From assembly GCA_046563655.1 (NCBI GenBank), contig CM102285.1, forward strand, positions 7,192,001 through 7,256,000: a stretch of DNA of 64,000 bases. Direction: 5' to 3'. Below the pieces are notes generated by a model. It saw nothing but the letters and a program-made list of their open reading frames with translations, did no database searches and was not told the origin of the DNA. The position numbers and the translations under genes are program-made. Numbering within the stretch: position 1 is the stretch's first letter; every line of letters begins with the position of its first letter. Origin of the DNA: Yuukianura sp. NJ FZ-2021 (taxonomy: Eukaryota). Below, in pieces: positions 2,796-59,937 of this stretch.

Positions 2796-5700
2796 TTGTT
2801 TAGGAACGAGAATTACGCTTACCTTCAGTATTTTTCCAATAACACAAACAAATCTTTTACTGTATTTAGTTGTTTTTAGGCTTTTGGAATTAATTTTTTG
2901 CCATTTTTAACAACTTTTTTCAAAACTTGTTTGAGCAGTTTTTAAGAAATTTTTAAGAACTTAAAATGAAGATTTTTAGAACTTTCTTTTCACAGGTCTG
3001 ATCATAATGCAACCAACACCACACTCAGAGACCATACTAGCACATCGAATAAATGTTAAAAAGGGATACTAAACGCGCTGTGTAACGTATTATCCCGACT
3101 GAAACAAACGTGTTGCAGTACTACAAAGTCATTCCACGCAACAGCATCGTCTACTGGACTCAATTCGAACAACGCTGCAAGATTTCTATATTCCCGAGTG
3201 AGTCAAACGTAATTTAGAAATTTTGGACATTGATGAATCACCTTCGTAGTTTCTTCACTAATTTGGAGCGCAAGAAAACTAATCTCTCCCTTGTGGATCT
3301 CTACACAAATACCGCCTTACGTTTGAATAATTTTTAGGAGAAACCGATATTAACATGTTCTTCACAATGGATCAAATTGCTTGCCTGCATCGCTACCCAA
3401 TGCCAAGACTCGTTCCCCGGTCAACTTGACCGCGGCAAGGCTAATACCATACTCAAGAATTAACCTCATATTCATATTCATCCAGCTCCACTCTATTGAT
3501 AAGAAGAAGGCAGTAGTACTAAATTTCTGAGCCTTCCTTGATATTATCAGCGACAAGATAAAGCTCATTTCCCCGCTGAAGAAAGCTGTAGAAAGTAGCG
3601 ATCTCTTGGGACTGATTGTGTTTTCTACTTCTTTGTGCCTAGGCAGGCTCCGTAATCGGTTGAGGTGCCCTTAAGGGCCCACAGGGCTCCTTGGATGATG
3701 ATCATCCAACTTTTGGAGAGTCCCTTGGAACGTACAGTGCACGAAAGCCGAGAAGCCCTCATCTTTAGAATTGCTTTCTCTACTTTCCCTCTTCAATCCT
3801 TCCCGCCTCCTTATCTCCAGGAATATAAAAATGAGCTTAAGGAGTAAACTGCTTCTTTCCAGTGAAGCTTAATTTACTCCCTGCCTTAGTAGTTTTCACT
3901 GCTACTTTCACTTTCGCGTCCTAAACTTAACTCGTTAAACAGTTAGTTCCCTTTGTTATTTATTCCAATACGACAAAACCCAAATCTTTTTCGAATATAT
4001 GTCTTTAACTGCTTCAATTTTATGCTCCAGAAAGGAGTTCCAGTTCCAGCGGAATCTGGTAATTCAAAATTCACTTTCACTTTGCTTTCATGTTTATATT
4101 TGGACAGTGAAACTGTGACGGGTACAGCGGAAATTGAACCGTGCCAAAAGCCTAAGAGCACTGGATCTTGTTTTCTTGAGAGTAAGTAAACAAACAAGGA
4201 AAAAGCGTGACGTGGACCTGTTATGGTTGCGAAAGCTTTGTGAGGGTGACATGACCTCGATTCCACGCTTTCACCTGGAGTGGCGCCAATATTTGAAAAA
4301 TGTAAAAATTTGCGCGGGTGAAAAGCAAAGCCAATCAACGCTCCGCCCTGAGCTCAGCTGTAAGCTACTGTAAGTCACCAACTTTTTTCTTCTGCGCTAA
4401 AATCTAAAACCTTAATCGCAAATGTAAGGTTCATGAACAAAGAAAATGCTATCACTCATAAATTTTTTCGGGAATCTGAAAAATTCGTGGATTAGACTCG
4501 CCCGGAGAATTTCATTCGATCTGTAAGGCTTCTGCTTGGAAACGTTTAACGGTGACACAAGAAAACTTCAAAGGAACCATTACCCGTGACAATAAATATA
4601 CAAAAGATACTTAGTTTCGGACATGACTTGAATTAAATTCAAAGTCCGATTCAGGCTCAAATCAGAATTTTAACTGAACCAATTTTACGTCAAAACATCT
4701 GAATCGCTTTATTTAAACATCGTTTTCTTTAGAGTAATTGGAATCAAGTAGTAACTTTAGTTAAGGAGACCTTAACTGCAAGTTAAATGCTGGTTTTATT
4801 TTAATGTTATGTTTGAATGGTTTTGTTGTTGGGTTGAGTATGGTTACCCTGAGGCTATTCTTTCTTCAATTTCCTCAGATCTAACGTGTTTTGAGAAGTA
4901 AACTCGGAAATAATTCTGCACTCAATCAAGCCTTTATTTCAGTCCCCCATTGTTCTCTGGCAATTTCTCGCACTCGCACACAGGACCCCCAGCAGAGATT
5001 AGAAAAGAAGCAGGGATTGGGCATTGGGAAAGTGCTAGAAGTTTCACCGGAAATGCAGTTGAGCCAAAGGTTTTGACTTTTGAACTCACAATGATATCGA
5101 CCGTTTGGTAATAAGTAAAAAAAAGTTAGGAAAAAATTTAGACAACTTACGGAACGGTTCTTCCGGAATCTGAAATGTGTTACATAGGTGCATCACGATT
5201 GGTAATTTTCTAATTTTGGACCAAAACACATCTGAAGCAAAATAGGCGATCTTAGTATTGATATGGCAACAAATTGTTAAAAAAGAAAATGAAAAATCCA
5301 CAATTTCGAATTGATTTTGTTTACGTGCCACCTTTTTCATCTAGCTGTAGATGTTTGACCTGTCAACCTCAATATCATCGGTCAAGATCAACTTCACGCT
5401 ACATTATTTCCGTTGGGGCTGAGGATTAATGCTTCCCTGTTGAGCGTGCCTTTTCACTTGTTCCTTGAATTTCTACAGAGGATTTCACTTTTCTTCATTA
5501 TCTACAACGGTATTAGCTAATGGTAGTGGTAGAGAAATATACCGTTTTTCAAAATGGCGGCCGCCCTTATCAGCAATTGCATATGCTCAAAACGTTTTTG
5601 CTCCCATATGACGTCATAACCCCCCCCCCCCACTTCCACACCCCCATACCCCCTATATTCTACTTTTCCCCCACATGACCCCCAAGTCACGTGCCCCCCC

Positions 5701-6848
5701 CTCCCCCAAACCACAAAGTTGGAATTTATTTTTAAAAAAATCTTTAAAAAAATAATTTTTTTAAAAAAAATCAATTTTTGAAAAAAAAAAAGACAATTTT
5801 TTCCTAAAATTTGGAAATTGCAAAATGTTTTGAAACTTGGAAAATGGAATGGCTGTTAAAACATTCAATTGGAAGTTGCCCCAGATGTCCCCAAATTTAA
5901 ATGTCAATGTCAATCTAATTTTTTCAAGGTCATGCGTGCCTTTTGCATTGGCATATGAATTTGTATCAAGGTCATGCGCGCCATTTACAATTTTGTGTAT
6001 ATTTTTCAAGGTGATTCCAATATTTTTTTCAAGGTCAAGCGAGCATTTTGAAATTGCCATGTACCGCGAGCCCTTTGCTGGGTTCCCGGGGTCACGAGGA
6101 TCAAGTACGGCGCAGGGGCAGTGTATTCGGCTCGTCAGAGGATTAGTGGGGTGCCATTCGGCCACTGCTAAAAGAAACCGAAAACCACTTCCGGTTAGCC
6201 TGCCAAAAGAAACCGCAAACCACTTCCGGTCAGTTTGCCCGTGCACATGCACGTACAATTCCATTTGAATTTTGAAAACAAACATCAAGGTCAAAGGTCA
6301 AAGCGAGTGACGCGTCTAGCAGTGACGCTTCACTGCTAGACACGTCACTCGCAATAGACTTGTCGCTACGTTCGGGGGCGTGGCTTGTCGGTCGACTCTT
6401 TGGCCAATCGGCGTTTATCATTTCAAAAGTGGGCGTGGCTTGAGGAAATGGAGCCATTTGATTGGTCCGCACCACTCCGGGGTGTGGCTACCTCTGGCCA
6501 ACGTCTCGCTCTTTCTTGTGAGTTCATAATTTGCCCTTGGTTGAATTCCAATAATGACAAATTATGAAATCAACCAAAGTCAGAAACACTCGGCCTTAGA
6601 ATTGAGCAGAGACCCATGGTTAATATGAGAGGAACCACTTTTGTTTGTGCCATTTTTTCGATTTCGTCATGAAAAATGCCCTTGACATTTTACCTAGCAC
6701 AGGAACGTAATTATTTTTGGAACCGGTGAAAACCCTTTGAAATTGGTGCAGTAGTCGTCGAGAGAACGGTGCTAATATTTTTCAGACATAGAGACAGAGA
6801 GACTGAAAGAATTATTATAAATTATCATCTAGTATTTAAAAATTATAC

Positions 6849-7491
6849 ATGAGTTACATAAGTAAGTATAAGCTATATACTTTTGTTTATCTGTGTCGCA
6901 TGCGGTATATTAAATTTGTTTGCCTTTCGAGTTTGAAACGTTTTCGATTCTCAACTTTACTGGTTGTCTTTTGTTTGGCTACGCGGAAGTCGCAGAGCAA
7001 TTATTCTTTTGATTTCATGGATGTTTTATTATCCTTGAGTTGTTCTCGTTACTTCCGCAATAACTTTTTTTTCAGTCTTGCTTCACACTCCGAGTGCAAC
7101 TCTTCAATTATATGCCCTCAATTTGGAAAGCGATCTTACGATGTGGATGTCCATATTTTTTCTCGCTACCATAGCTACAACCAACGATGGGGTCGCATGG
7201 AATCAGGTAATATAGTAATATTTTTGAGTATGTCAATCATTTTTCCTGTCGAATTTAAAGGTGCACGTGCCGCTATATATTGGTCAACCGCACTGCGCCG
7301 AGATTTTTTTGAGTTTCGATATCGTCATTGCTAACCTGCCTGACGTCTTTTCAAACATTCGAGGGACATCAACAAATGACATTATTCAGAATCAGATTGA
7401 CGGGTTGAAATTTAGTTACGAGGATCTTGAATTTGAAGCCTATTTCTGTCAAGACGGGTATGAGTTGAAAGGGTTTGGGCTGGAGTATTAA
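6849..7491 (+). pseudogene. Intron-containing gene or gene fragment of unknown function inside palindrome 1 (left copy)
   Basis: Exons 6849-6861, 7076-7206 and 7261-7491 join in frame through GTAAGT…TTTTTTCAG and GTAATA…TTTAAAG (124 aa). Includes a signal-like MWMSIFFLATIATT and a YFCQDGYELKG motif. Confidence 0.5.
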
Positions 7492-8217
7492 TTTGCACAA
7501 AAGCAAATATCGTTATTGATGCTTATTTTGAGTATGACGGCAAAAAGTGCGTGAAACGGGTAACAACTTGCTATAGTTAAGCTTGGCTAAGTTAGCAACT
7601 TAGCGAAGCTACGAACGAAGCAACGAATTCCTGGTGTTTACCTTCCGATGGCATACCCTGTATAATAAAGTCTACACATAAAATAGAATAATCTTTTTAC
7701 GAATTGTCATGAATGCAGTCCTAGTTCGCCGTGTAGTCTACGGAGGAATCGTATAGTTCGTCATAGTACGTTTCCATTTCACCAGTGTTATCCTCAATCA
7801 GCTTGGTTTCGCCGTCATAGTATGAGGGCAAAAAGTGCGTGAAACTGGTAACAACTTGCAAACAACAACCGTTAGAAACAATTTCCGAGGATGGCGAGGA
7901 AACCAAGCTGATTGAGGATAACACTGGTGAAATGGAAACGTACTATGACGAACTATACGATTCCTCCGTAGACTACACGGCGAACTAGGACTGCATTCAT
8001 GACAATTCGTAAAAAGATTATTCTATTTTATGTGTAGACTTTATTATACAGGGTATGCCATCGGAAGGTAAACACCAGGAATTCGTTGCTTCGTTCGTAG
8101 CTTCGCTAAGTTGCTAACTTAGCCAAGCTTAACTATAGCAAGTTGTTACCCGTTTCACGCACTTTTTGCCGTCATACTCAAAATAAGCATCAATAACGAT
8201 ATTTGCTTTTGTGCAAA

Positions 8218-8860
8218 TTAATACTCCAGCCCAAACCCTTTCAACTCATACCCGTCTTGACAGAAATAGGCTTCAAATTCAAGATCCTCGTAACTAAATT
8301 TCAACCCGTCAATCTGATTCTGAATAATGTCATTTGTTGATGTCCCTCGAATGTTTGAAAAGACGTCAGGCAGGTTAGCAATGACGATATCGAAATTCAA
8401 AAAAATCTCGGCGCAGTGCGGTTGACCAATATATAGCGGCACGTGCACCTTTAAATTCGACAGGAAAAATAATTGACATACTCAAAAATATTACTATATT
8501 ACCTGATTCCATGCGACCCCATCGTTGGTTGTAGCTATGGTAGCGAGAAAAAATATGGACATCCACATCGTAAGATCGCTTTCGAAATTGAGGGCATATA
8601 ATTGAAGAGTTGCACTCGGAGTGTGAAGCAAGACTGAAAAAAAAGTTATTGCGGAAGTAACGAGAACAACTCAAGGATAATAAAACATCCATGAAATCAA
8701 AAGAATAATTGCTCTGCGACTTCCGCGTAGCCAAACAAAAGACAACCAGTAAAGTTGAGAATCGAAAACGTTTCAAACTCGAAAGGCAAACAAATTTAAT
8801 ATACCGCATGCGACACAGATAAACAAAAGTATATAGCTTATACTTACTTATGTAACTCAT
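8218..8860 (-). pseudogene. Mirror copy of the gene fragment at 6849-7491
   Basis: Reverse-complement copy; the ORF track shows the same peptides with single-residue differences. Confidence 0.5.
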
Positions 8861-11800
8861 GTATAATTTTTAAATACTAGATGATAATTTATAATAATTC
8901 TATCAGTCTCTCTGTCTCTATGTCTGAAAAATATTAGCACCGTTCTCTCGACGACTACTGCACCAATTTCAAAGGGTTTTCACAGGTTCCAAAAATAATT
9001 ACGTTCCTGTGCTAGGTAAAATGTCAAGGGCATTTTTCATGACGAAATCGAAAAAATGGCACAAACAAAAGTGGTTCCTCTCATATTAACCATGGGTCTC
9101 TGCTCAATTCTAAGGCCGAGTGTTTCTGACTTTGGTTGATTTCATAATTTGTCTTTATTGGGATTCAACCAAGGGCAAATTATGAACTCACAAGAAAGAG
9201 CGAAAAAATTAGATTGACATTGACATTTAAATTTGGGGACATCTGGGGCAACTTCCCATTGAATGTTTTAACAGCCATTCCATTTTCCAAGTTTCAAAAC
9301 ATTTTTCAATTTCCAAATTTTAGGAAAAAATTGTCTTTTTTTCAAAAATTGATTTTTAAAAAAAAATGATTTTTTTAAAAATAAATTCCAACTTTGTGGT
9401 TTGGGGGAGGGGGGGGGCACGTGGGGGAAGAGGAGGATATAGGGGGAGGGATATATAGGGGGTATAGGGGGTGCGGAGCGGAAGTGGGGGGGGGTGATAA
9501 CGTCATATGGGAGCAAAAACGTTTTGAGCAGATGCAATTGCTGATAAGGGGGACGCCATTTTTAAAAACAGTATTTCTCTACCACTGCCATTACCTGGTA
9601 TTGTAAGCAATGTAAGAAAGTGATCCCTCAAGAAAACAATGGGGAAAAACTGACCTTTGACCCTTTACATACCCCACTCGTAGAAATAATTAACATTTTA
9701 TACAAATTGTGGCGAATGAACATCCAAACTTTCTTGTTGTTTTACGTGCTACGCTATTCTGCTTTGTCATCTCCTTTAAGTTTTTGAAAAGTAGATCGAC
9801 TTTTCAGTTCTGAAAAAGTTTTGGTTCAAAGTGAAATGTGAAAGACAGTTTCCCATTGGGCTGTGTAAAATCATTTGAATGTCGATTGTAATTTTTGTAT
9901 GAAGAGCAAGTGCAGCAAGAGCAGAAGCAGTAAAGGAAATGAGCCGTGGTTTGTAAAACTTTTACTCTTACAATTGAGCAAAATTTATGTTATTTCAGAT
10001 GTATCCATTTGAATAAAATGGCTCCCAGTTTCACTTTCAAAATTTTCTGCTCTTTTTATGAGCCGTTGTATCAGGGCATTTAACAATTCCCTACCATTGG
10101 TCTTTCCCTTGCCCAAACTGAGGAACTGACGTTCGGTAATGCTCGCAGTTTTTGACATCAATTTTAGTTTCAAAATAGAACCCTTGAAGTTTACTCCGAC
10201 AAGCGGTTGACAAAAAGCAGAATGTATTTTGTTTCATTTTCAAGAGAAGTTTTTGAGTTGACTGACACATGCACTTAATATGTGAATTTAGTTTACATGT
10301 GCACAACTAACCTAAAAATACTGGAACCAAATCTAAAAACAAAGTTTTTTAATATTGGACAAAGTTTTGTTGGGGTTGGACATAAACCCGAACTTTACCA
10401 TTTTTACAATTTGTTCTTAAAGGTTCCTTATTGAGTCTTTCCAATGTCCCCTCTTGATAAAATCTCCATGTAACTCATAAACGGTTTTTTACATGTTAGC
10501 TTAATATTTAAAGATGGGGACAGATACGACATTTTTATACTTCCGCAAGGGCTGATTCCTAGTGAAAGTTTGCTAGAAGTCAGTTTGCAAGGAAACAGCT
10601 AAACCAAAAATCCAATCTCTGAAGCTGTTGAGTTTTAGGACTCTAAGAACAAAATACGATTTAAGAGGCAGTAGGTTTCCGTCATAAAAATTGGTCAACC
10701 ATAAACGAAGCGAAAAAGAAAGCAGCCGTTGGAACAATTTTTTAGTCATTTGGATCCGAGCCATGGACCGATGCCATGGCACAGCGGTGGGCTTTCACTT
10801 TTACTTCCTCCCGCTGTCAACATTTTCAAACTTTGTAAAAAAAATGAAATTATTTAATTCTACAATTGAAACCCATCCTAAAACTTCAAAGTTTTGAGAA
10901 GGACTGTTCTTGGAACTTGAGTATGACGTAACCCTACTTTTGAATTCAAATTTTAAAAAGAGAATATAAAAACCTGCTGACAAGTTGGAATTTAATTTGG
11001 GAATGTTTTGTGCATCCCTTGTGGCATAGATTGCAGCAATCTGATTCCCTTCCTTTGACACTTTGTGGCAGAAAGTGTGCTACTCACCTAAAACTGAGGT
11101 TTTTGGTTTTATTTCCGATTTGAAGCTGTGGAATTTCAAGTTTCCCACGAAAGGTTCGATTCTGAAATGGCTGAAACTGTGTGGGCAACCACAACGTTTG
11201 AAACCGTTGCTGACGTTCGTTGTGGCTGGTCAGAAATTACAGCAATGGTTCCTTGTTCAAATTTTGAATTTCGTGGCGATGTGGAACGCTATTAAATTTT
11301 GAATGTTACGTGTTACATAACCTGAGGGACCATATTACCTATCAGCTTATAAAAAATTGCTCTTTTAAATGAAAGTCTTAAAGATGCAAACTTTCACTTC
11401 CTAAGATCACTGTCTTGCTTCTTAGACACATAGAAACCGTTGTTATAAAGATCAATGGAAGTGAAAAGAGAAAAGCTGTAATTGGTTCCCTTGAGATTAA
11501 TGACACAGGAACATCCAAGTTCTCAAGATTTCTAACGGAAGGTGATTCAGTTGTAATTGACCTCTGACCTGCATATCAGACTTCTTCCTACATAAATCCA
11601 ATACCAAGTCCAACGTTGCAGAAAACTTTTAGTTGCGAGACATATACGACTTTTGTGGAGTTCCAACTTGCCACGTTATACCGGCGTTTCAACCCAAAAG
11701 TTGGTGAAGTCGGAATGGGAACAATCGCCTTACTGCAGCAATCATATCAAAAAATTTAACATTTTCTCTTCTTTTTTAATTTTTCGACATTTTCCTGCCG

Positions 11801-13012
11801 AAGTTTGTTATTACTCATACTCCATCCGCACATTATGCTGCCAACAAATCACCATAAACCTGAATGTCGCTTGCATTTGGCGGCTGGCGGGCGCCCTGGG
11901 GCCACTATTCGCCATGTTTCCAGAGACTTGTGCCAAAACGGGCGCCCTTGTGGAGTTTCATCTTTGCCACCACGGTGGAATTGGAGTAGTTTCGAGCGAG
12001 ACCTATGAGCCGCGGTGTCTCATCAGCAAAAATTTAATAAGAACGGGGATGATACAGTTTCATGTGACTGAAGCGTCGTCCTTAAATGGAGAAACACTTT
12101 GCTCAAATTGTCCGACACTGACAATCCGGCTCTTCCAAATAAATTCTTGGGTCTCAGGCCTGTAAACTGACAGGAAAAACGTAGACAAAGTATAAAAAAA
12201 AGTCACCAGACGTAACTGAAGGAAAAACGCAAAAACAATGAAACAAGCTACGAGGCGAACCATTCTACCAACTGAAATCATAAATGTTGATTAGGTTACC
12301 ACCTTAGGTTGATTAGGTTAGATATGGAGAGTTAGCTCCACCTAGCATATTACGGTGTTGGAGTAAGTTCAAAAATCAAAGCGAGTATGAATTAGTCAAT
12401 AAATCATTCTGAACATCTGAACGTTTTAAGAGAACTTAGATTGTGCCCCCGATTTTTGCGTTCATATTTGGGTAGGTAATTTTGTAATCGAACTCAGAGT
12501 AATCGAAGCTCCAAGGGTTTACGATTACAAATTATAGATTAAAACTTTCAGATAAAAACCCAAAAATCCTTAAAATAATTCCGCTTGTAATAATTTTCAA
12601 TAATTTAGTTTCAGAAACCAGAATTTAAAATAAGACGAATTTTTTGGTCATTATATAGCACTTACGTTCCATGCGATCGTTAACGTCAAATTGACTTTTG
12701 CGGTATGTGTCCACTTATTTTCCCGCGAGTAAAGTAAACCCTGAGAACTGCAAAACCACATTTGCCTCCGTTTTGTGAAGGCAATTTTGTTGTCGTATTC
12801 GATAAAGCAAATGCCCTTGATGATACATCAGTTCGGATTAAATCAGTTTTTGATCGGCGGGTATACTTATCTGCGTCCATGTTGGAATTTATCAGAGAAT
12901 GTCATAAAGGCGAAACTTAAATAATTTAGAAAACTAAGAAATAAGTCAACAAGCGAGTTGAAGGTCAATGACTTTGCTTTGATTTTTGAATTTTCATAGA
13001 AATTTTCAATGT

Positions 13013-13509
13013 TGTAATGAAGTGGCCTTATTTTAGAAATGAAAGGTCAAGACACTACTGTTTTGTGTTTCTGCTTGGTGCAGAAGGAAAATAACTTTTA
13101 TTCAATTAAAGTTTAGTGAAAGGGGATTGACCTCGCAGGGTCAAGTTGGGTTGAACTCAGTCAGAGTTTGAGCAGAGTTCAGTTGGAATTGAAAGTTAGA
13201 AGAAGAATGAATGATGGAGGGCATTGGCAACTGCTCCTTTTATAGGGCCTTACGAGTACCAATGACCCCTTGACATTTAAATGAGGAGTAACTCGTAACT
13301 CCTCTGATGCTAATGAAAACAATGGCAATGAACTCAGTGAGTTCAAGAAACTGGATTTGAACTAGAAAAATCTATTTTTAGACTAAAAAGTAACTTTGTA
13401 CTTTAAGTTATGTGTTTTGTGCAAACACAGTTTGCACAAAGACAAAAGACAAGAGTTATGAAATGGAAATGATCTGTATTTAACAGGAGATTGACCTTAT
13501 ATCATTACA
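13013..13509 (-). repeat. 3' LTR (497 bp)
   Basis: Direct repeat of 19356-19851; TGTAATGA…TCATTACA inverted ends; minus-strand TATAAAA (13238-13244) and AATAAA (13097-13102). Confidence 0.97.
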
Positions 13510-14249
13510 GTCCTCCTTCGTTAGACGGAAGACTCTCCTGAGTTTTCTTAGGCTGAATGAGACATCGATTTGCTTTGTGACCCGGGAGGTTACAGATCCA
13601 GCAGTGACGTGGCCCGCGAGGTTTTGGTCTCGGCTTCGGGATCATCGCAGAAATTGTGGCCTTGATGTCCCGTGGGTCAGTGACGATGACAATTGGTCTG
13701 CCAGCGGAGCGTTGTTGTTGTTGTTCTTGTTGTTTTGGTCGTCTCAGCGGCGGCGGAAGTCCTGTGCTCATCCGAGCGTAGGTTCTCGGCTGACGTTCCA
13801 TTTGTCGGAGGTTTTGGAGCCGTTCCATTTGTCGGAGGTTTTGGAGAGGAGATTCGGACGTCATCGGCACGGGTCGTTGAACCTTCGGGATTCTCCATGC
13901 AGAAAAGTTGATTCCACCGTTTGGAGGGTTGTCGTTACGCAGTAACGGTACGGTTGGAGTCTCCGATGTTACGGAAGAAGTAGAATTGATGGTGATCGTT
14001 GGTGAAATGGCTCTCCGTTGAACTTGTAGGTTTTGGAATTGATCTAAAATAAAAAATAAAAGAATAATTAGAAAAATAAATATAATTTAAAAGTTGGGTA
14101 TGTTATGGGAATGGGGATGGACAGAAGATGTTGCATGAAGTCAAAGGTCGAAAGGTCATTGCACTTTACTTACCAGCGACTTCTTCGTCAACACGAAGCA
14201 ATGCTTCTTCTTGCTCGAGGTCCATGTCCTCAATATTCCCATTGGCCAT
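13505..14249 (-). CDS. Spliced ORF3 of the LTR element: 204-aa low-complexity protein with a C-terminal CCHC zinc knuckle
   Basis: Exon 14249-14174 (ATG; MANGNIEDMDLEQEEALL…), intron 14173-14044 (GTAAGT…CTAAT…TTTTATTTTAG), exon 14043-13505. The join is in frame. Motif CWICNLPGHKANRC. Confidence 0.7.
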
Positions 14250-17200
14250 AACGATCTGGTTGTCTCGTGGCTCGAGTTGACCTTCTGAGTTGTAGTGGTG
14301 ACGGTTGGTTGACCTCCGGTAGACTTTCGGACAGAGTTCCCTCGTCTTCGAGTTCTGATGCAGGACTGACAGGGTCACCGTCATCCTGACCTGTATTTAT
14401 AGGGGATCTGAACTGGTCACTACCACTGTCACTTGCACTATCCGAGTCAGTGCCACTGAACTTGTTTGAATGTGCCGATGAACTTTTATCTAATTTAGCA
14501 CTAGTTTGCGTAGCAGATGAACTTGAATTTGACCTGATTTGACTATTTGCACTTGAACTGATCTTTGCATGATCAGCTGTGTGATGTGAAGTGGAGGAGT
14601 GTGATTCAGCTACAGTTTGCACTTTCCTCCCCCTCCTTACTTTAGCACTAATGGGAGTTCCAGGGGACCCATTGTTGCCTTTTGGCTGAAGAATTGTCTT
14701 TCTCTGTTTGACATGATCAGTGAAGCTACTTTCGCTTTCACTGTCGGAGGAAGGCATAAACTGCGAGTTGTATCGCTCTATGTCCCTAACATGAACAATT
14801 ACCTTTTTAGAGCGACTATTCATTTTTTTGATTTCGTAATTAACATTACTAGTCTGCCTAATAATTTCATAAGGGCCGTCCTTTTGAGCAATCAATGCTT
14901 TTGAAAGGCCTTTCTTTAAAATTGGTTTTGATCTCAAAACCAAATCACCTACTTTAAATTGATGTTCTTTTCGAGTCTTATTGACTCGAACTTTATTTTT
15001 CTCATGATTTTTCCTGGAATTTAGTTGAGCTTTGTGCCAATCCTCTTTTAATTTTTCCAAATCATGTTCTTCATCAGAATCAAAGTTTGGAAGATCAAGG
15101 TCAATTGGCAAAGTAGCTTCTCTGCCAAATAGTAAATAAAATGGGGAATACTCGGTTGAACAGTGTTTTTGGACATTATAAGAAAATGTCGCTCTGTCCA
15201 AACACGAGTCCCAATTTTGCTGATTTTCCTGAACAGTTTTTGCAATACCCTTTTTAACTGTTTTATTACAGCGTTCCGTCATGCCATTTGCGGCTGGGTG
15301 ATACGGAGCTGTAAATCTAAGTTTAAAACTAAATTCCTTAGCACACGCTTTGACCAAATTGGAAGTGAATTGTCTTCCTCGATCAATCACAAATTCCTTT
15401 GGCAAGGAATGCTTGAAAATAATTTTGTTTTTAATGGCTTCCACGGTCGCTTCTGCTGTAGCTGCCGGAACTGCTAGTGTTTCAGCGTATCTAGTGAAAT
15501 GATCAATAAAAACAATTGCGTATTTGTTTCCTGATTCTGATTTCACAAAAGGGCCAATGTAGTCAATCCCTACTCTTTCGAAGGGTGTGCTGACCTCATC
15601 GAAGCTTTGCATAGGACCATATTCATGACCTACACGTTTCCTAAATTTTTGGCAAATTGGACAACCAAGAATGTATTTTCTTGTGTCCCTGTACATTCCT
15701 ACCCAATGGAAACGACTTCTTACTAAATCCCATGTTTTAGTAATCCCTGCGTGACCTGCTAGGTCACCAGCATGCAGAGAATCCAAAACAATTTTCCTAA
15801 GGCATTTTGGAAGTACGATTTTCCACTGATGTCCAGATGGCGCGAAATTTGGAAAAAGCAAAATTCCATCTTGTAAACTATAATGTTCCAATTGTTTAAC
15901 ATTAGGTTTAGGAATATTACTTATCCCTTTTTCTTCAGATTCAATGTACAAAATGATCGACTTAAGGAAATTGTCAGATCTTTGTTTGACTTTAATTTCA
16001 TTTTTTGAAAATAACTCAGGGACTCCATCCAGAACTAGGACTTCTGAGCTGTCCATGGTCTCTGGTGGGTCAACTGGGTATCTTGACAAGGGGTCAACGT
16101 CATTGGCTGTCCTCCCCGGTCTGTGGACAATAGTCATATCTTGATTTTGCAAGGTTATTGCCCACCTTGCAAGCCTACTATTCACGTCTTTGACAGAAAA
16201 CAGCCATTTAAGGGCGTTATGGTCAGTGTACACAGTATATTTAGTACCATAAATGTAAGGTCTAAATTTTTTGACTGCGTAAACAACTGCCAGGCATTCC
16301 TGTTCTGTCGCGGAATATTTTCGCTCTGCGTCCGTCATGCTTCGACTTGCATAAGAAATGACGCAAGGTTTTTCATTTTGTATTTGGACGAGGGTTGCCC
16401 CAAGCCCATACCCACTACTGTCACAATGTACTTCAGTAGGTACATTGTCCATGGGGTAAGCCAGGATTGGACTGTTAATTAAATAATTTTTTAAAGTCCG
16501 AAATGCTAAGTCCTGTTTTTCTCCCCATTCAAATTTCTGATTTTTCTTTAGTAGTGAATTGAGTGGAATTGCAATTCTACCGTAATTTTGAATGAATCTT
16601 CTGTAGTATCCACACATTCCCAAAAATGATTTCACATCCGTTTGATTTTTTGGAATTGGGAACTTTTCGATCGCAACTGTTTTGTTTGGGTCCACCTGAA
16701 TTCCATGTTCAGATATGACGTGGCCCAAATAGTTGAGTCTGTTGGTTCCAAACACACATTTACTCAATTTCAGGGTTAGACCGGCTTCTTTAAGTCGGTT
16801 TAGAACCGTAACCAGCCTATATTTGTGCTCGTCAAAGGTTCTACCCCAAATTACAAGGTCATCTAAGTACACAAGTACAATGTTCCATTTCAAATTGAGT
16901 AAAACCAAGTCCATTAAGTATTGGAAGCTTGATGGAGCATTGCATAAACCCATAGGCAACCTTTTGAACTGGAATAACCCATCAGGAGTAATAAACGCAG
17001 TTTTTTCTTTGTCTTTTGGATCCATTTCAATTTGATAGAATCCAGACAATAGATCTAAAACTGTGAAATATTTGGCTCCAGAGAGTCTGTCCAAGGCGTC
17101 ATCCATTCTAGGCAATGGATATGAGTTTTTCTTGGTAATTGCATTAAGTTTCCTATAGTCAATGACCAGTCTTGAACTACCGTCCTTTTTAGGTACCAGT

Positions 17201-18465
17201 ATGACAGGAGACGACCAAGGGGAAATGGATTCCTCAATGATCTCACTTTCCAGTAACTTGTTTATTTTTTCCTTAATTTTACTCCTTTGAGGGTACGAGA
17301 CCCTGTAGGGATGACTACGTATAGGTTGACTTTCGCCTGTGTCAATTTTATGACGAACTAGGCTAGTTTTTCCTAAATCCGTTTCATCCTCAGCAAAGAG
17401 CATAGGAAATTGGTTAATTACTTTTGTCATTTCAGTCTTTTCATCGTTTGTCAGGTTGTCTCCTAACTTTGGGGTGAAGTTCCCTAACGTGCCTTCTTCT
17501 GTTTTGATGGTCTCGCCATCTTCAGTAAGATAGTACAAGTTTTTATTAGGAGGACAAATTTCACCATAACAAATTGTTGTGCCTTTTGCTAAGGTCACAG
17601 CAAAGTTATTTAAATTGGTGAGCCATATTTCGGTACGGCTGTCCCTGACTGTCGAGTAGACATACGGTTGGAGTAAGGCATGAGTCTCATTAAGTTTCTT
17701 GTTTGGATTTAAAATAACTGATCCAGAAATGATGAAATCAGACTCAACTGTAATTCTTGAACACTTTTTTGGTTCCAGTCGGACTGTTTTTGTCAAATTG
17801 AATTTGTTTAACTGAGGCTCATTTTCCTCAGCCTTGGGCAAATCCAATGGTGACTCTTCATCAATTATTGGAAATTTGTTTTTGTCCATGTTTCTTGTAG
17901 TCCAATCAGTCCCTAACAGCATTTGGGGTTTTAATCCCACCATTATATGGAATCCCCAGACAGTGAGTACATGGTTGTGGTAGAACCGTAGTTCAACAAT
18001 TTCATCAACCGCTGTTACACTGTTTGCTGTGTTGACCATGATTGGGCAAATCTTGTACCTCTTATGAATGAATTCTTTTAATTCATTCAACCGTTCTAAG
18101 CCAATGCTGCTGAAGTTGGCACCTTCATCGACTTGAACTCTATACGTTTTGTTACCAAACAAAAGTTCAGTAAAGACTTTTGGCCCATACCTCCATTTTC
18201 TGAAAGGTACAGGAACTGTTATCCCTTCAACTGAAGTTTCAGGGATCGAGTCGGATGCTACATTAATTGAATTAATTGAATTCAAATTTTTCTTTACTTT
18301 ACTAGCGTATGTTTCACTAGTAGTTTGTTTATTTTTGTTTTCTGAAAAATTTTTATTTTCAGTAGTGAGGGCATTTTGCCCTTGCTTGCATTTGTTTACT
18401 TTTTGTAAAGAGAAGTTATACGCTGTTTTTATTTGTGGGTGAGCGTAAGCACCCGATTCATTTAG
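14230..18465 (-). CDS. pol: Pol polyprotein (aspartic protease, dUTPase-like linker, RT, RNase H, integrase), likely expressed by -1 frameshift from gag
   Basis: Frame is open from the gag stop to 14230. Motifs VDEGA, SPWSSPVILVPKKDG, YLDD, CDSSGYGLGA, YTDH, H-H-C-C zinc finger, DYIGPF…D…E and GPY. Confidence 0.95.
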   Translation of the reverse strand, partial: LNESGAYAHPQIKTAYNFSLQKVNKCKQGQNALTTENKNFSENKNKQTTSETYASKVKKNLNSINSINVASDSIPETSVEGITVPVPFRKWRYGPKVFTELLFGNKTYRVQVDEGANFSSIGLERLNELKEFIHKRYKICPIMVNTANSVTAVDEIVELRFYHNHVLTVWGFHIMVGLKPQMLLGTDWTTRNMDKNKFPIIDEESPLDLPKAEENEPQLNKFNLTKTVRLEPKKCSRITVESDFIISGSVILNPNKKLNETHALLQPYVYSTVRDSRTEIWLTNLNNFAVTLAKGTTICYGEICPPNKNLYYLTEDGETIKTEEGTLGNFTPKLGDNLTNDEKTEMTKVINQFPMLFAEDETDLGKTSLVRHKIDTGESQPIRSHPYRVSYPQRSKIKEKINKLLESEIIEESISPWSSPVILVPKKDGSSRLVIDYRKLNAITKKNSYPLPRMDDALDRLSGAKYFTVLDLLSGFYQIEMDPKDKEKTAFITPDGLFQFKRLPMGLCNAPSSFQYLMDLVLLNLKWNIVLVYLDDLVIWGRTFDEHKYRLVTVLNRLKEAGLTLKLSKCVFGTNRLNYLGHVISEHGIQVDPNKTVAIEKFPIPKNQTDVKSFLGMCGYYRRFIQNYGRIAIPLNSLLKKNQKFEWGEKQDLAFRTLKNYLINSPILAYPMDNVPTEVHCDSSGYGLGATLVQIQNEKPCVISYASRSMTDAERKYSATEQECLAVVYAVKKFRPYIYGTKYTVYTDHNALKWLFSVKDVNSRLARWAITLQNQDMTIVHRPGRTANDVDPLSRYPVDPPETMDSSEVLVLDGVPELFSKNEIKVKQRSDNFLKSIILYIESEEKGISNIPKPNVKQLEHYSLQDGILLFPNFAPSGHQWKIVLPKCLRKIVLDSLHAGDLAGHAGITKTWDLVRSRFHWVGMYRDTRKYILGCPICQKFRKRVGHEYGPMQSFDEVSTPFERVGIDYIGPFVKSESGNKYAIVFIDHFTRYAETLAVPAATAEATVEAIKNKIIFKHSLPKEFVIDRGRQFTSNLVKACAKEFSFKLRFTAPYHPAANGMTERCNKTVKKGIAKTVQENQQNWDSCLDRATFSYNVQKHCSTEYSPFYLLFGREATLPIDLDLPNFDSDEEHDLEKLKEDWHKAQLNSRKNHEKNKVRVNKTRKEHQFKVGDLVLRSKPILKKGLSKALIAQKDGPYEIIRQTSNVNYEIKKMNSRSKKVIVHVRDIERYNSQFMPSSDSESESSFTDHVKQRKTILQPKGNNGSPGTPISAKVRRGRKVQTVAESHSSTSHHTADHAKISSSANSQIRSNSSSSATQTSAKLDKSSSAHSNKFSGTDSDSASDSGSDQFRSPINTGQDDGDPVSPASELEDEGTLSESLPEVNQPSPLQLRRSTRATRQPDRYGQWEY

Positions 18466-18471
18466 TTTTTT
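18437..18471 (-). promoter_or_regulatory. Programmed -1 ribosomal frameshift signal
   Basis: Heptamer A AAA AAC (18471-18465) lies immediately before the gag TAA; hairpin GGGTG-N8-CACCC starts 10 nt downstream; the -1 frame is open into pol. Confidence 0.8.
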
Positions 18472-19340
18472 GTAGTTTTAATTGTTTCAGTGACTTCTAC
18501 ATTGTCAACTGAAGTAAAAGAAGTGCTTCCAGATTTGTTACCATCTTTGTGCCAACAGTCATCGTACACGTGACCTGGCTTTTTACAACCTGTGCAGAAC
18601 TTTCGTTTCTTTTGTTCAAAGTTTCTGCCAGTTTCTGTTGCAGAGGTAAGAGTAGAAGACTCTTTTTGCTTATTTGCATTTGTATTTTCTGCAGGTGATT
18701 TGAATTTGACCTGCGAATTTTGACCTTTTTTGTCATTGTTGAAGTTAGGCTTTTCTAACTTCCTAAGTTTTTGTAAAAACTCGGCTGGAGTTTTGGGGTC
18801 AATCAAGGTCATCATGTTTTTTACAGAATATGGGAGACCTTTGATTAATTTTTCAACTTGTTTTTCTTCTGACATGTCTGGGTCAATGACCGACAGGCAT
18901 GCCAGTTTCTTGGCGACATACTCAGAATGTGAGTCGCAAGTTTGTAGAAAAATAGTTTTCAGTTTCCTCTTTGCGTCAGATTTGACCTGTTCGGGGTCAT
19001 AGAATGACCTGATCGCAATTTTTAACTCTTGCCATTTGGAATTGGCATTTGCAGGGGTCAAATCCCTGATAATTTTTGTTTGTGACCATCGCCACCATTC
19101 TAGTGCTTCACCTTCCATCAAAAGATGGAAGTTTAGGATCAGCGAATTGCTGTCCAGAGCACCCGATGCAATTAGAGCATCGCACCTTAAGGTCAACAGG
19201 TCAACGTTCGTCTTGCCATCAAAAAGAGGCACCGAACGTACCACAGCCTTTAGGTCAAATGGTTTGGTCAACGCCTGTGCGGACCCGTTAGGAGTAGGCA
19301 AAGGAATTGAGGTAGAGGTCGAGGTCATGTTTTGGTTCAT
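18462..19340 (-). CDS. gag: Gag (capsid-like region plus CCHC knuckle)
   Basis: VPLFDG, LMEGEALEWW and LIKGLP capsid-type motifs; CTGCKKPGHVYDDC; first ATG at 19340. Confidence 0.92.
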   Translation of the reverse strand: MNQNMTSTSTSIPLPTPNGSAQALTKPFDLKAVVRSVPLFDGKTNVDLLTLRCDALIASGALDSNSLILNFHLLMEGEALEWWRWSQTKIIRDLTPANANSKWQELKIAIRSFYDPEQVKSDAKRKLKTIFLQTCDSHSEYVAKKLACLSVIDPDMSEEKQVEKLIKGLPYSVKNMMTLIDPKTPAEFLQKLRKLEKPNFNNDKKGQNSQVKFKSPAENTNANKQKESSTLTSATETGRNFEQKKRKFCTGCKKPGHVYDDCWHKDGNKSGSTSFTSVDNVEVTETIKTTKN

Positions 19341-19355
19341 AGGCTCGTCCACTAT

Positions 19356-19851
19356 TGTAATGAAGTGGCCTTATTTTAGAAATGAAAGGTCAAGACACTA
19401 CTGTTTTGTGTTTCTGCTTGGTGCAGAAGGAAAATAACTTTTATTCAATTAAAGTTTAGTGAAAGGGGATTGACCTCGCAGGGTCAAGTTGGGTTGAACT
19501 CAGTCAGAGTTTGAGCAGAGTTCTGGTAGGTTTTAAAGATTGAAAGTGAATGATGATGGAGGGCATTGGCAACTGCTCCTTTTATAGGGCCTTACGAGTA
19601 CCAATGACCCCTTGACATTTAAATGAGGAGTAACTCGTAACTCCTCTGATGCTAATGAAAACAATGGCAATGAACTCAGTGAGTTCAAGAAACTGGATTT
19701 GAACTAGAAAAATCTATTTTTAGAGTAAAAAGTAACTTTGTACTTTAAGTTATGTGTTTTGTGCAAACACAGTTTGCACAAAGACAAAAGACAAAAGTTA
19801 TGAAATGGAAATGATCTGTATTTAACAGGAGATTGACCTTATTTCATTACA
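19356..19851 (-). repeat. 5' LTR (496 bp)
   Basis: Direct repeat of 13013-13509. Confidence 0.97.
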
Positions 19852-29432: not shown

Positions 29433-31844
29433 TATGGTGGCCCCAGAGTGCCAATGCTGTTTTTCTCATTTTGTAATTCAAAAAGCATTTTCAAATGCAT
29501 TTTCAATTGCATTTCATTTTAAAAAGCATTTTCAAATGCATTTTCAATTGCATTTCATTTTAAAAAGCATTTTCAAAAGCATTTTCAATTGCATTTCATT
29601 TTAAAAAGCATTTTCAAATGCATTTTCATTTGCATTTCATTTTAAAAAGCATTTTCAATTGCATTTCATTTCAAAAAGCATTTTCAATTGCATTTCGTTT
29701 CAAAAACCATTCTCAATTGCATTTCATTTCAAAAAGCATTTTCAATTGCATTTCAATTTCAATTTCAAAATGAAAATGCACTTGGCCCTTCTGGGCTCCT
29801 AATTCAAATTCAATTTGAAAATGAAAATGCATTTGGCCCTTCTGGGCTCCTTATTCAAAAAGTGCGCCTCCTTCATACCATGTGACTTTTTTGTGTCTGA
29901 AAGTGGAAAAGTCTTGAGTTCCTATAGACATCACTAGTGCCAGTTCACAAATGGGCACAAATGCCAAATCTCAAATTATCGAATGTTTTGTTAATTTTAA
30001 GTTTGTATTCTAATTATCTATTCATTTAAATATTAATTTAAATTTTTCATTTCCATATTAATATATTCTACGGTGGTGATTGACGTTCTACTGTAATGTT
30101 TCGATTGAGTTGATCGTGTAATTTACACATGGTTACTGAAATGTCATAAATCTCTACATTGTAATAAGAATTCATAATTAAATTTATTGTAAACTCATTC
30201 CGAAGCGCAAATTCATTTGTTTTTAATTGGCCTTTGACTGCGTTTAGAAAGTCCAACGGACGTAGCTAGGACATTGAGCATATGAAAAGATACTAATTCT
30301 CAAAGCTAACGATTTCTCAAAAACGAAAGGTCAGAATTTGATGACGTGATGCAGGGGCAGTGTTGGCTTATTGTAGTACCTACACAATAAATTTCAGCTT
30401 TCCGACATCTCAACTCTAATTTTCCGATAAAGTGAAATCCTCCTGCAGGAAAACTTAGGTTATTTTGTTTTAGTCAACCCTAATCTTACTTGCCTACCCT
30501 AGCTAAACGAAAACTCAGATTTTCATGTAACTTTAGGGGTATAATTATTAAAGTGCTTAGAGTATCCCCTTTAATTTACAGCTTCGCCACAAGTCGGTTT
30601 CTTGGTGAAATGTTGGTGGAGATAGTGAGTCGACGATGGACTTCGTTAAGATAATAATTCTCAAAGTTAACCGTCGTCGTCTCGTCGACTCACTATCTCC
30701 ACCAACATTTCACCAAGAAACCGACTTGTGGCGAAGCTGTAAATTAAAGGGGATACTCTAAGCACTTTAATAATTATACCCCTAAAGTTACATGAAAATC
30801 TGAGTTTTCGTTTAGCTAGGGTAGGCAAGTAAGATTAGGGTTGACTAAAACAAAATAACCTAAGTTATCCTGCAGGAGGATTTCACTTTATCGGAAAATT
30901 AGAGTTGAGATGTCGGAAAGCTGAAATTTATTGTGTAGGTACTACAATAAGCCAACACTGCCCCTGCATCACGTCATCAAATTCTGACCTTTCGTTTTTG
31001 AGAAATCGTTAGCTTTGAGAATTAGTATCTTTTCATATGCTCAATGTCCTAGCTACGTCCGTTGGACTTTCTAAACGCAGTCAAAGGCCAATTAAAAACA
31101 AATGAATTTGCGCTTCGGAATGAGTTTACAATAAATTTAATTATGAATTTTTATTACAATGTAGAGATTTATGACATTTCAGTAACCATGTGTAAATAAC
31201 ACGATCAACTCAATCGAAACATTACAGTAGAACGTCAATCACCACCGTAGAATATATTAATATGGAAATGAAAAATTTAAATTAATATTTAAATGAATAG
31301 ATAATTAGAATACAAACTTAAAATTAACAAAACATTCGATAATTTGAGATTTGGCATTTGTGCCCATTTGTGAACTGGCACTAGTGATGTCTATAGGAAC
31401 TCAAGACTTTTCCACTTTCAGACACAAAAAAGTCACATGGTATGAAGGAGGCGCACTTTTTGAATAAGGAGCCCAGAAGGGCCAAATGCATTTTCATTTT
31501 CAAATTGAATTTGAATTAGGAGCCCAGAAGGGCCAAGTGCATTTTCATTTTGAAATAGAAATTGAAATGCAATTGAAAATGCTTTTTGAAATGAAATGCA
31601 ATTGAGAATGGTTTTTGAAACGAAATGCAATTGAAAATGCTTTTTGAAATGAAATGCAATTGAAAATGCTTTTTAAAATGAAATGCAATTGAAAATGCTT
31701 TTGAAAATGCTTTTCAAAATGAAATGCAATTGAAAATGCTTTTGAAAATGCTTTTCAAAATGAAATGCAATTGAAAATGCATTTGAAAATGCTTTTTGAA
31801 TTACAAAATGAGAAAAACAGCATTGGCACTCTGGGGCCACCATA
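29433..31844. mobile_element. Fold-back/palindromic element 2 (2.4 kb) with modular tandem repeats in its arms
   Basis: 29433-30636 is the reverse complement of 30682-31844 (45-nt loop). Termini TATGGTGG…CCACCATA; ATTAAG on both flanks. Arms carry arrays of TTTTCAATTGCATTTCATTTTAAAAAGCA, with ~41 bp more on the left. Confidence 0.93.
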
Positions 31845-33036: not shown

Positions 33037-36000
33037 TTTTTTTTTTTTTTTTTTTTTTTAAATTTGAACAAATTCAATATTTTTAATTGACAGAACTGAA
33101 AAAACTTACACCTGCCAGAGGCAGGTTGAGGTATTTAAAGACGTATTGAAAAAATTTTTAAATCATATAAATTTCGTAGAGTTCTTTTCCTGACGGTAGG
33201 GTACCCAATATAGAAGTGGCATTTCCTCTTTGGATGGCAAGGCTAATTCGTTGAAAGAGGAAGGATGTTGCTCGATTGTCACCGGTGGCTTCTGAGAGGC
33301 GATGTCCAATGGAATTGAGTAGACGTCGGCCTTCTTCCCCGTAGACTCCAGTTGTCTCGACTGCAATGATGGAAACAATAAATCGATGATCAAGGTCACG
33401 GTAGAGGTCATGCTTATGGATTTCAGCAACGGCAGCAGGATGACCGAGAACGGAGGATGATGTTGCTAGGTAGGACGCAGCGAAGGTGTCACGGCAGGTA
33501 AAGTCCCAGGCAAGGGAGCGACCGGACTTCCAAGGAATGAGAGTGATTCCATCAGGTCGCTTTCCATCAGTTCTGGAACAGCCGGAAGGTTCTTTCATAC
33601 ATGGTATTCCACTTGTTTGAAGCGATCTTGAAATGATGTCGTTTACAGCGGCGTGTCTTGAATGTCTGCCTGCACTTCTCGTACAGCTTAGGCCGTGCAA
33701 GCCGTTGCTTGATACCAAAGTTCCGCATGGACATCGATGAGGTTGGCAAATTTCGGTGCCTAGCCGCAATCCACAAGAAATTCTGAAGGTTTGGTCTGAA
33801 AGGAGCGTCCCAAGAGGCGAAGATGGAATAGCCAGTAGCCAATCTCCAGAATGAGGGGCGGCTGAAGCAAGCAGTCGTGCTTTATCGATGAGAGTGGTTG
33901 ATTTCTCCAGCAGGTTGGAGTAGATTTTTTCGAAGATCTGAATTTCCCAGAGTTTTTGTATTTTTCCATCTTGCGGCGTTATGAAGTCCAAATTTGACCA
34001 ACTGAGGGAAGCAAGGTCCACTGACTTATCGAAAGGCGAAAGATGTGGTGGAAGGAAGGTAGAAATTAGTTCGGCACAACTATAGACTGAAGCCAAAAAG
34101 GAAAATGTAGCACAGTCCGTCGCGTGGCGAATGCCTAAACCCCTTGATTCACAGGCAAAGAAGACTGCAACCATGCTTCTTCATTCAAACTTGAGTTCAG
34201 GATGGATTCCAACACGGTGCGTAAAGCTGAGTCGTAAGCTTGTAGGAGGTCAGGTTCGAGGAATGCAGGAGAACATCTGACAAAGTACAGAAGTCTTGGT
34301 GTTGAAATTGATGCCCTAAGTAGAAAAAACGCTACATGGGCTGGCAGGCAAGAGAGTCTTGATGAAAGTCTGTTGAAGTCATCAGTTTTGTATTTGAGGA
34401 TACGACGTGAAGATTCTTTGAACAGAGGCGCTCCCAACAGTTCCGTTTGTTCTTTCTCGGGGAAGACGAACTCCGGCGAAATCGATTTGAAGGAGTTTGT
34501 GATTAACTTTTGTTCAGACTGGTCGGCAGACAGAATGATTACTTCGCATTTCTTCATGTTCAAATGCAGACCAAAAGAACTGGCACTAGATTGGATGGTT
34601 ATGAGGTTTTTGAGCACAACATCTGGAGAGTCGCCAATTGTCGCGTCGTCTAAGTACCACGAATTGAATTCGGTCGTTAGGGATGCGGCTAGTGGGTGAA
34701 TTGTTAGTGCGAAAAGTGCAGGACCCAATGGGCAACCTTGTTGGACTCCTAACTTGGACTTGATGCAGCTAGAGTTGTAGAAGAGGTCTGATTCGAACGA
34801 GTATGCTTGAGAGACGAAATTGAAGATTTCTGGTAGATGAGTTTTCACAGCATTCAGCATTTGATCTCTTCTGATAAGATTAAAGGCGTTTCGAAAATCC
34901 AACTTCAGAAGAACCTTGGGAGAGGCGTGATTGGCGTTGCAGAAGATCCTGGCAGCGTGAGCCACGGCTTCGGCTCCGTTCTTGACGCCGACGCCTGTTT
35001 GAATTGGATGTAGGATGGACGAAATGGCGTTCATTGAGCGCGACAGGATTAGCTTCGACACTAGGCGTCTCCAGGTGAGGCCGATTGCAATTGGCCGGAT
35101 TCCACCTTTTTTCTTCTGAATCGCAATAAGGGAAGCACCGAAGAACACAGGCCGGATGTCGACAGGAAGAGAATCATTAGCGATGAGATTGCACAGCTTG
35201 GAAATTGAAGATAGCAGCGCTAAACCTGCATCTCCTGATGATTTTGATGTAAGTTCTTTTAGTATTTGAGGACGAAGCGAGTCAAGGCCACCGGAAGAAC
35301 CATTTGGGAATGAAGAGATAGATTTCAGGATGTCACTTTCTTCGAAAATGATGTTTGTTGGAGAAGGTGGGTCTGGCATGACGGTTGGTAGAGGATGAGC
35401 CGGGTGTAACTCGTGGAGGGCTTCAATAGTGGAGGAGTCATCCGATGCCAAACAGTCATCAGAACAGAGAACTCGAATGGATCCACGAATGTCGCCGTCC
35501 GCTAGTTTAGATTGAACAAGTTTGGAACAATTCCAGTGTTGGGATGATGGCAAGTAGCGGGGGAGATTATGAGTTGATGGTGAGTTGAAGAACGTAGACG
35601 ATGAGGAGGAGAAGCGGTTGACATTTGACTTCACCCATTTGGTCAGATTTGGAACAGGGTCTTCTTTTTTCGGAAGATGTAGTGCTGCATATGGAAAACA
35701 GAAAAGCCTTTCCCACGATTCCGAGGAGTTCTCGGTAACGACTTGTTCTATGACGGCGGAGAGTGTGGATGCCACAACTTGTCTAGCTCCCTTGGGGATG
35801 TGTTTGAGAATTTGAATTGATTTTTTCAAAAGTGCGAGTCGTGAACCAATAGTAAGATCCGGAGATGATGATTGAGCAGTGGGGTCCAAAAATGTAATCC
35901 CAAGATACGATTGTTCAATGTGTTTCCGTCCGCTCGCCCTTGTTTTGGTGATATTTGGAAATATCTTCAAAAGTTTTGAACCCATGGTTGTGTCAGCTAG

Positions 36001-56754: not shown

Positions 56755-57019
56755 TTTTTTTTTCCACATGGCAATCAAACAAACTTTCTATCCGCACTAC
56801 CTAGTAGTATTCTATTTACATTGGTCCGGAGGTAGGGCGTTGTGATACAAACCATTCCAGAATATGATACTCCAGGTCAGTGAATACCAAAATATTATGT
56901 CCTACTTGACGTTAGGCAAAAGCGTTTGGAAAAACGAGCATGTTTTACATCCTTAATGGGGCTTCACGCAAGAACAGGTCATTTTTCCGAAATGTGCGGG
57001 AAAATTACTTTAGTGAGAT

Positions 57020-59860: not shown

Positions 59861-59937
59861 TCTTGTTTCTTGTAAGTTTTTTGAAACAAGGATTTGAAAA
59901 AAAAACGGAAATTAAAATTTTGAAATAATTTTTTCAG

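Follow-up and report, generated by a model that had tools for sequence, protein, structure and literature searches.

Foldback-type DNA transposons, among them Drosophila FB, Tetris and the Galileo-like elements with long terminal inverted repeats, consist almost wholly of two long inverted arms around a small unique middle. The target-site duplications of Galileo and FB are 7-9 bp long. Those of Tetris measure 8-10 bp, and short tandem repeats in the outer arms and a lack of recognisable coding capacity are further marks of this build in passages of PMC4079207. Long inverted repeats that can fold within one transcript also characterise the hairpin RNA (hpRNA) loci of Drosophila (Nmy/Tmy, hp-CG4068 and the de novo hpRNAs of D. 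simulans). Inverted duplication is the known route by which such loci originate, and what defines them is a primary transcript, a complementary target and 21-nt small interfering RNAs (siRNAs) that depend on Dicer-2, as set out in part of PMC10317233. Palindromes subject to gene conversion, on primate sex chromosomes and in gene blocks of the springtail Folsomia candida (the latter in a portion of PMC5490193), have arms more than 99% identical and a short unique spacer. Break repair gives rise to foldback inversions mediated by hairpins and to short inverted insertions of templated sequence, both described in sections of PMC7467729 and PMC11724301. Herein, we compare with these systems a palindrome, designated E1, whose near-perfect inner part lies at 6506-9203 of a 64,000-nt stretch of DNA (the window; contig CM102285.1 of assembly GCA_046563655.1, positions 7,192,001 to 7,256,000 of the forward strand). 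E1 most resembles the first of them, or else an inverted duplication, and stands as one more foldback-type palindrome in a repeat-rich arthropod stretch, and such structures are already known.

The reading that we favour, with a probability of about 0.5, holds that E1 is a non-coding palindrome of foldback type that derives from a transposon, that fold-back repair or gene conversion has renewed its inner part from the centre, and that a one-sided indel of 580 bp followed later. Base-by-base alignment of the inner arms, 6506-7810 and 7899-9203, revealed 7 substitutions in 1305 positions and no indels. The mismatches lie at 6547, 6555, 6725, 6807, 7125, 7238 and 7313, none of the seven falling within 7314-7810, and the loop between the arms occupies the 88 nt from 7811 to 7898. 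The arm coordinates, the approximately 7 mismatches in 1305 bp and the 88-nt loop of the original prediction were thereby reproduced exactly. The 2.7-kb extent that it gave applies to this inner part; the inverted repeat as a whole, however, is larger and runs from about 5454 to 9653. Its outer arms, 5454-5925 and 9204-9653, align at approximately 83% over 481 columns, with gaps in poly-C and A/T (low-complexity) runs, and the 141 nt at 5785-5925 pair with 9202-9342 at 99%. Even the outermost zone, 5454-5514 against 9603-9653, gave a local score of 16, compared with a shuffle mean of 9.6, and only 0.45% of 2000 shuffles reached it. Short tandem repeats with units of 8, 9, 12 and 17-19 nt are present in the outer arms at 5625-5846 and 9281-9472. 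By folding prediction, the central 900 nt form a single hairpin of -778.6 kcal/mol, versus -211 for shuffles (z = -70.8). The palindrome is far beyond chance and genuinely genomic, with a length of about 4.1 kb, from 5454/5515 to 9596/9653. Its parts are as follows.

5454-5514, no strand: outermost and most diverged left-arm zone, pairing with 9603-9653 (substitution rate 0.189)
5509-5514, plus strand: GGTATT, left copy of a candidate target-site duplication, a 6/6 match with 9597-9602
5515-5925, no strand: left outer arm, with terminal motifs of the ATGG type, 8-9-nt repeats rich in C, 17-19-nt tandem repeats rich in A/T and the 141-nt part that is 99% paired
5926-6505, plus strand: left-only 580-bp segment, unpaired on the right arm
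6506-7810, no strand: left inner arm, aligned with 7899-9203
7531-7571, plus strand: arm segment m, 41 nt, whose reverse complement lies at 8138-8178
7811-7898, no strand: loop, made up of an 8-nt remnant, a copy of m (m') and 39 nt
7899-9203, no strand: right inner arm, aligned with the left inner arm
9204-9596, no strand: right outer arm, lacking a counterpart of the 580-bp segment
9597-9602, plus strand: GGTATT again, as the right-hand member of the candidate duplication, matching 5509-5514
9603-9653, no strand: outermost diverged right-arm zone, pairing with 5454-5514

A repeat scan of the whole window detected two further near-perfect palindromes.

29433-31844: E2, 2412 bp, with a 45-nt loop and 1.2-kb arms between which there are 7 substitutions and, within a tandem array, a single indel of 41 nt
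55463-56574: E3, 1112 bp, with 450-nt arms that differ by 2 substitutions and by indels of 1 nt and 28 nt, and a 183-nt loop

The outer arms of E2 are built of 12/17/29-nt tandem units, which form stronger arrays than the tandem repeats of E1, and its ends begin TATGGTGGCCCC; E3 has subterminal tandem repeats of the CGTACGCTTAG type and ends that begin TATGGAGGGAG. In each of E2 and E3 the two termini match one another at 40/40 positions, starting TATGGTGG / TATGGAGG, and perfect 6-bp direct repeats flank both E2 (ATTAAG) and E3 (CAATCA). Given these 40/40 ends and perfect 6-bp duplications, E2 and E3 are true transposon insertions of foldback build, and both match that build as it is described in PMC4079207, in part. 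Their arms have diverged by about 0.4-0.6%, much like the inner arms of E1. Together, the two suggest that near-perfect palindromic transposons with TATGG-type (TATGG.GG) ends and 6-bp duplications form a family, which we assign to no known superfamily. The fallback offered by the original prediction, that the palindrome is simply mobile-element cargo, fits this context of two clean foldback transposons in the same window.

Near-perfect palindromes with short loops are also a known shape of artefact. An assembly error or a chimeric read (a fold-back read or an amplification chimera) would be in keeping with the occurrence of three palindromes in one window. Against this, E1 is internal, with different unique flanks on each side, and its 7 arm substitutions, one-sided 580-bp segment and graded outer arms, together with the perfect target-site duplications of E2 and E3, which artefacts do not make, render such an origin very improbable indeed. 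Among sequencing runs compared by sampled words, 5 DNA contig runs from 2 studies shared 21-62% of the words and no RNA run was listed; these shares count neither as support for the structure nor as evidence on expression.

The affinity of E1 with E2 and E3 was assessed by a direct-repeat test, in which 6-bp words were compared at 237 symmetric positions along its outer arms. Six perfect matches were obtained. Five are palindromic words (CAATTG, GCAATTGC, AACGTT, AAACGTTT and CATATG) and were discounted, since inside an inverted repeat such words match automatically. The sixth, GGTATT (5509-5514 and 9597-9602), is the sole non-palindromic perfect match; it has the length of the E2 and E3 duplications, its calculated chance is approximately 0.06, and it would delimit an element at 5515-9596 with the ends AGCTAATGGTAGTGG and AGGTAATGGCAGTGG. 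The arms carry TAATGGTAGTGG and AATGGCGG near their ends, the latter being a second ATGG-type motif situated 38 nt further in, and ATGG.G is invariant across all six aligned termini of E1, E2 and E3. A further candidate duplication, AATGGCGG / TTTCAA-TTTAAA, was rejected as a palindromic word inside the inverted repeat and hence an automatic match.

With foldback-type transposons, E1 thus has in common long inverted arms that make up nearly the whole element, a small unique centre, outer tandem repeats and no recognisable coding capacity, the features by which the foldback anatomy is recognised (PMC4079207, in part), as well as nearby siblings that share its end motifs and, if the candidate duplication is accepted, its duplication length. 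It differs from them in that its duplication would be 6 bp long rather than the 8-10 bp given for Tetris in that source, in that its ends are its most diverged part and its inverted repeat continues past the candidate duplication, and in that its inner arms are unique sequence rather than repeats, with no other copy or transposase seen in the searches detailed below. The seed of the palindrome would most likely have been a non-autonomous DNA transposon of the E2/E3 kind.

Several observations weigh against a transposon origin. The chance probability of the GGTATT repeat, approximately 0.06, is one. The inverted repeat is significant beyond GGTATT (0.45% of 2000 shuffles), which a simple insertion does not predict, and the ends of E1 are the least conserved part of its arms, the opposite of what an active transposon and the 40/40 termini of E2 and E3 display. 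No internal similarity of E1 to E2 or E3 was detected. Of the 61 open frames of at least 95 codons, 42 were scanned for a DNA transposase; none turned up, and the only domains were those of gypsy, non-LTR (long terminal repeat) reverse transcriptase and furin; the other 19 frames comprise 6 in E1, 9 overlapping two retroelements and 4 in the furin region. A second copy of E1 was found neither in the 64-kb window nor in two metagenome scans with two 20-mers, the first of which returned 0 matches and the second a single contig with 21 nt in common, a chance match. Finally, signals of the kind expected of genes do occur in the arms: splice sites that fit the consensus, TATAAA at 6816, AATAAA at 7664, the signal-peptide-like MWMSIFFLATIATT and a 164-codon frame at 0.35% of shuffles.

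The arm-to-arm substitution rate drops almost steadily from the edge to the centre, from about 19% to 0%. It is 0.189 in the zone 5454-5514, 0.111 in 5515-5552, 0.060 in 5553-5620, 0.097 in 5621-5700, 0.015 in 5701-5784, 0.014 in 5785-5925, 0.0087 (7/808) in 6506-7313 and 0 (0/497) in 7314-7810. Since a single duplication or insertion would age evenly, the gradient indicates that identity was maintained, or re-made, from the centre outward, and no simple one-step origin accounts for it. As read from one sequence, the gradient suggests arm-to-arm conversion.

The loop has a composite structure. Its positions 7819-7859 form m', a 95% direct copy of arm segment m. They are preceded by an 8-mer (7811-7818, GCCGTCAT), which is the same as the tail of reverse-complemented m and occurs only twice on the plus strand of the whole window, and are followed by 39 nt (7860-7898) running on into the right arm. 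The centre looks like either what is left of an older symmetry axis, at which reverse-complemented m abutted m, with some 70 nt missing on one side, or a templated insertion. Both would be marks of hairpin or fold-back break repair, and such hairpin-based repair, or gene conversion between the arms, would have re-made or homogenised the inner 2.7 kb, starting at the centre and moving outward. The resemblance to the foldback inversions and templated inverted insertions described in parts of PMC7467729 and PMC11724301 lies in the junction microhomology, the short spacer and the templated centre of 41 nt plus 8 nt. Those events, however, are new ones in yeast and cancer genomes, whereas E1 is a fixed germline structure with older outer arms. 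To gene-conversion palindromes E1 is likened by its inner arms, which are more than 99% identical, its short unique spacer and an identity pattern that suggests continuing homogenisation; it is set apart from them by a size of kilobases rather than tens of kb to Mb, by the lack of recognisable genes in the arms and by edges that are graded and fuzzy rather than sharp.

The same features may also be read as a local inverted duplication of unique DNA, not mediated by a transposon and including a small orphan gene, with the arms kept alike by gene conversion. Several observations agree with this: no other copy exists in the window, the identity gradient is of a kind that gene conversion could make, and junction microhomology with a templated centre is what replication- or repair-based inverted duplication gives, as reported in part of PMC7467729. 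In addition, 11 palindromes of gene blocks are reported for F. candida in a portion of PMC5490193; these, however, are multi-gene blocks and not 2.7-kb structures. The proximity of two undoubted foldback transposons of the same build also speaks against a local duplication, which we consider unlikely, though well worth weighing.

The segment at 5926-6505 is confined to the left arm, as had been predicted, and the right arm joins 9203 to 9204 directly. Its junction displays 2-nt microhomology (TC/GA, assignable to either side), and no target duplication flanks it. On the foldback transposon reading, either it would have been inserted later or its counterpart would have been lost from the right arm, the ends being joined via this microhomology. 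The segment has a GC content of 49.8%, which places it in the top 0.9% of 580-bp windows. It contains TCAAGGTCA four times, one of these at the boundary; this motif is enriched across the whole window, with 11 copies versus 0.68 expected. The segment also includes a 35-nt tandem of two units with ACTTCCGG, two copies of GGGCGTGGC and a 50-nt hairpin at 6303-6352. Judged by this motif density, the segment may be promoter-like, as it had been labelled. Its reading frames matched nothing near the cut-off in Pfam.

Helitron ends follow the TC...CTRR rule. The ends of the 580-bp segment do not fit it, and a Helitron origin was rejected. Two copies of a repeat, approximately 72% alike, were noted at 40850-41250 and 62300-62700; each starts with a (GTCT)n run and includes ACTTCCGG and then AAGGTCAAGGTCA. 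Both of the latter motifs are present in the 580-bp segment as well. Kinship with this repeat was rejected, only short motifs being in common.

The coding potential of E1 was evaluated for three open structures.

6849-7491, plus strand: three-exon model, with a minus-strand mirror copy at 8218-8860
6840-7334, plus strand: unspliced 164-codon frame, read in a different phase; its minus-strand counterpart lies at 8375-8869
7821-7988, plus strand: 55-codon open frame from m' into the right arm, with an acidic tail

The exons of the three-exon gene that had been proposed for each arm (6849-6861, 7076-7206 and 7261-7491) do join in frame at GT/AG sites, giving 375 nt with no internal stop. The introns, 6862-7075 and 7207-7260, have the donors GTAAGT and GTAATA and the acceptors CAG and AAG, and the mirrored model at 8218-8860 on the minus strand is also open, with two residues different. 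However, when the arm was shuffled 2000 times by a first-order Markov model, 44% of the shuffles contained an open frame of at least 87 codons, so that the exon model is no evidence of coding; nor did it find a homologue. The length of the 164-codon frame (6840-7334) was matched by only 0.35% of 2000 shuffles.

Searches for homologues were made at the protein level. The exon pieces, the 162-residue frame and the 55-residue frame matched nothing near the cut-off in Pfam. The Sushi model PF00084 did not match the exons at E<=1, and pieces of 30 and 38 residues did not match it even at E<=10. A HMMER search with exon 3 against 1.84 billion representative proteins returned seven matches at E<=0.001, namely four multi-Sushi proteins, two leucine-rich repeat proteins and one bacterial immunoglobulin-like protein. 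All seven match through 5-10 short repeated stretches, which makes these matches sums of motifs and not homology. The likeness to the best protein does not extend beyond YFCQDGYELKG with a few residues beside it, a stretch of 11-17 positions that recurs once per Sushi unit. A complete Sushi module would have its four cysteines and its conserved tryptophan in a single frame; none is present, the next cysteines lying in another frame. The Sushi/CCP (complement control protein) resemblance that had been put forward consequently shrinks to a motif of 11-17 residues. Word-index searches with the 162- and 55-residue frames retrieved no homologue, and the ESM Atlas provided no usable match (recognition 1587 and 1025, best score 0.80). 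The idea of a captured gene with a parental copy thus found no backing, as no arm frame has a homologue in Pfam, HMMER, word-index or ESM Atlas searches. Missing homologues are weak evidence here, given that the species' own proteome is apparently absent from the libraries; a furin-like gene of the window has its best match at 71%.

If the arms do harbour an orphan gene, it would exist as two tail-to-tail copies, each with its own TATA box and poly(A) signal, interrupted by two introns and encoding a signal peptide. The signals for such a gene are all found in both arms: TATAAA at 6816, exons joined in frame at GT/AG sites, an alternative start at ATG 7141 that would open the signal-peptide-like MWMSIFFLATIATT, and AATAAA at 7664. 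On the other side, no frame has a homologue, the two arm-to-arm differences within the spliced coding frame both alter the residue, and the exon model is no better than chance. On the reading that we favour, the open frames of the arms are chance frames or relics; a recognisable captured gene is unsupported, and an orphan gene may yet be present.

Transcription across both arms bears on the question of RNA. Read-through from any promoter would produce a perfect 1.3-kb hairpin RNA, a natural Dicer substrate, which would be a structural property rather than a demonstrated function. That part of the original prediction which concerned the double-stranded RNA accords with the folding prediction, by which a both-arm transcript would form a perfect duplex of more than 1 kb; the parental gene that this RNA was supposed to silence did not gain support. 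At gathering scores, Rfam gave 0 matches in the whole window, and at E<=1 in 5400-9700 it gave only generic long-hairpin matches far under their cut-offs (e.g., MIR5380, 52 bits versus 150). A tRNA scan gave 0 matches as well.

A functional hpRNA locus, compatible with either origin of the palindrome, would use the 580-bp segment as promoter of a 1.3-kb hairpin, from which Dicer-2 would generate siRNAs silencing a parental gene. The predicted perfect hairpin, the one-sided, GC-rich and motif-dense segment adjoining the left arm, and the arthropod host are all consistent with such a locus, and the de novo hpRNAs of Drosophila are inverted repeats of target-gene fragments in which transposon sequence is possible (PMC10317233, in part). 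A long inverted repeat foldable within one transcript of an arthropod host is what E1 has in common with the Drosophila loci. In contrast to them, its arms are longer and hold apparent promoter, intron and flank sequence, not a gene fragment alone, and no parental or target homologue was found at the protein level. Moreover, the window's two other near-perfect palindromes are plain transposons, which means that palindromy here needs no RNA function. We regard a functional hpRNA locus as improbable. Slightly more doubtful still is a young springtail hpRNA locus, in which a promoter-like, one-sided insertion of 580 bp would drive a perfect 1.3-kb hairpin made from a lineage-specific secreted-protein gene, siRNAs would act against that gene family, and the centre would be renewed by repeated breaks and fold-back repair; such repeated renewal would explain the smooth divergence gradient.

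The nature of the host was deduced from exons of a furin-like protease 2 at 59916-61465, which encode a P domain and cysteine-rich furin repeats. Their best named matches are from Orchesella cincta (71%) and F. candida (62%), followed by many insects. Judged by these matches, the host is an arthropod; the best ones being springtail proteins, it is a hexapod and probably a springtail.

Other repeats occur throughout the window. A gypsy-type LTR retroelement that looks complete occupies 12993-19851 on the minus strand. It has one frame for gag and another, of 1415 codons, for pol (reverse transcriptase, RNase H and integrase); its LTRs, 12993-13509 and 19336-19851, are 91-99% alike. At 33161-36525, a non-LTR retroelement, also on the minus strand, carries an RVT_1 domain and has a weak RFX DNA-binding match in its N-terminal part. 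A satellite-like array of diverged units of approximately 320-350 bp lies at 57000-59850, just upstream of the furin exons. Two smaller inverted-repeat elements were observed at 46823-47382 and 1761-2073, one with 86-nt arms at 92% and tandem units of approximately 20 nt, the other with 113-nt arms at 87%; these may be further elements resembling foldback transposons or miniature inverted-repeat transposable elements.

The gradient from approximately 19% to 0%, together with the templated centre, would make E1 a natural record of homogenisation proceeding from the centre outward. If small RNAs did arise from the palindrome, hpRNA biology would, hypothetically, be extended beyond flies.

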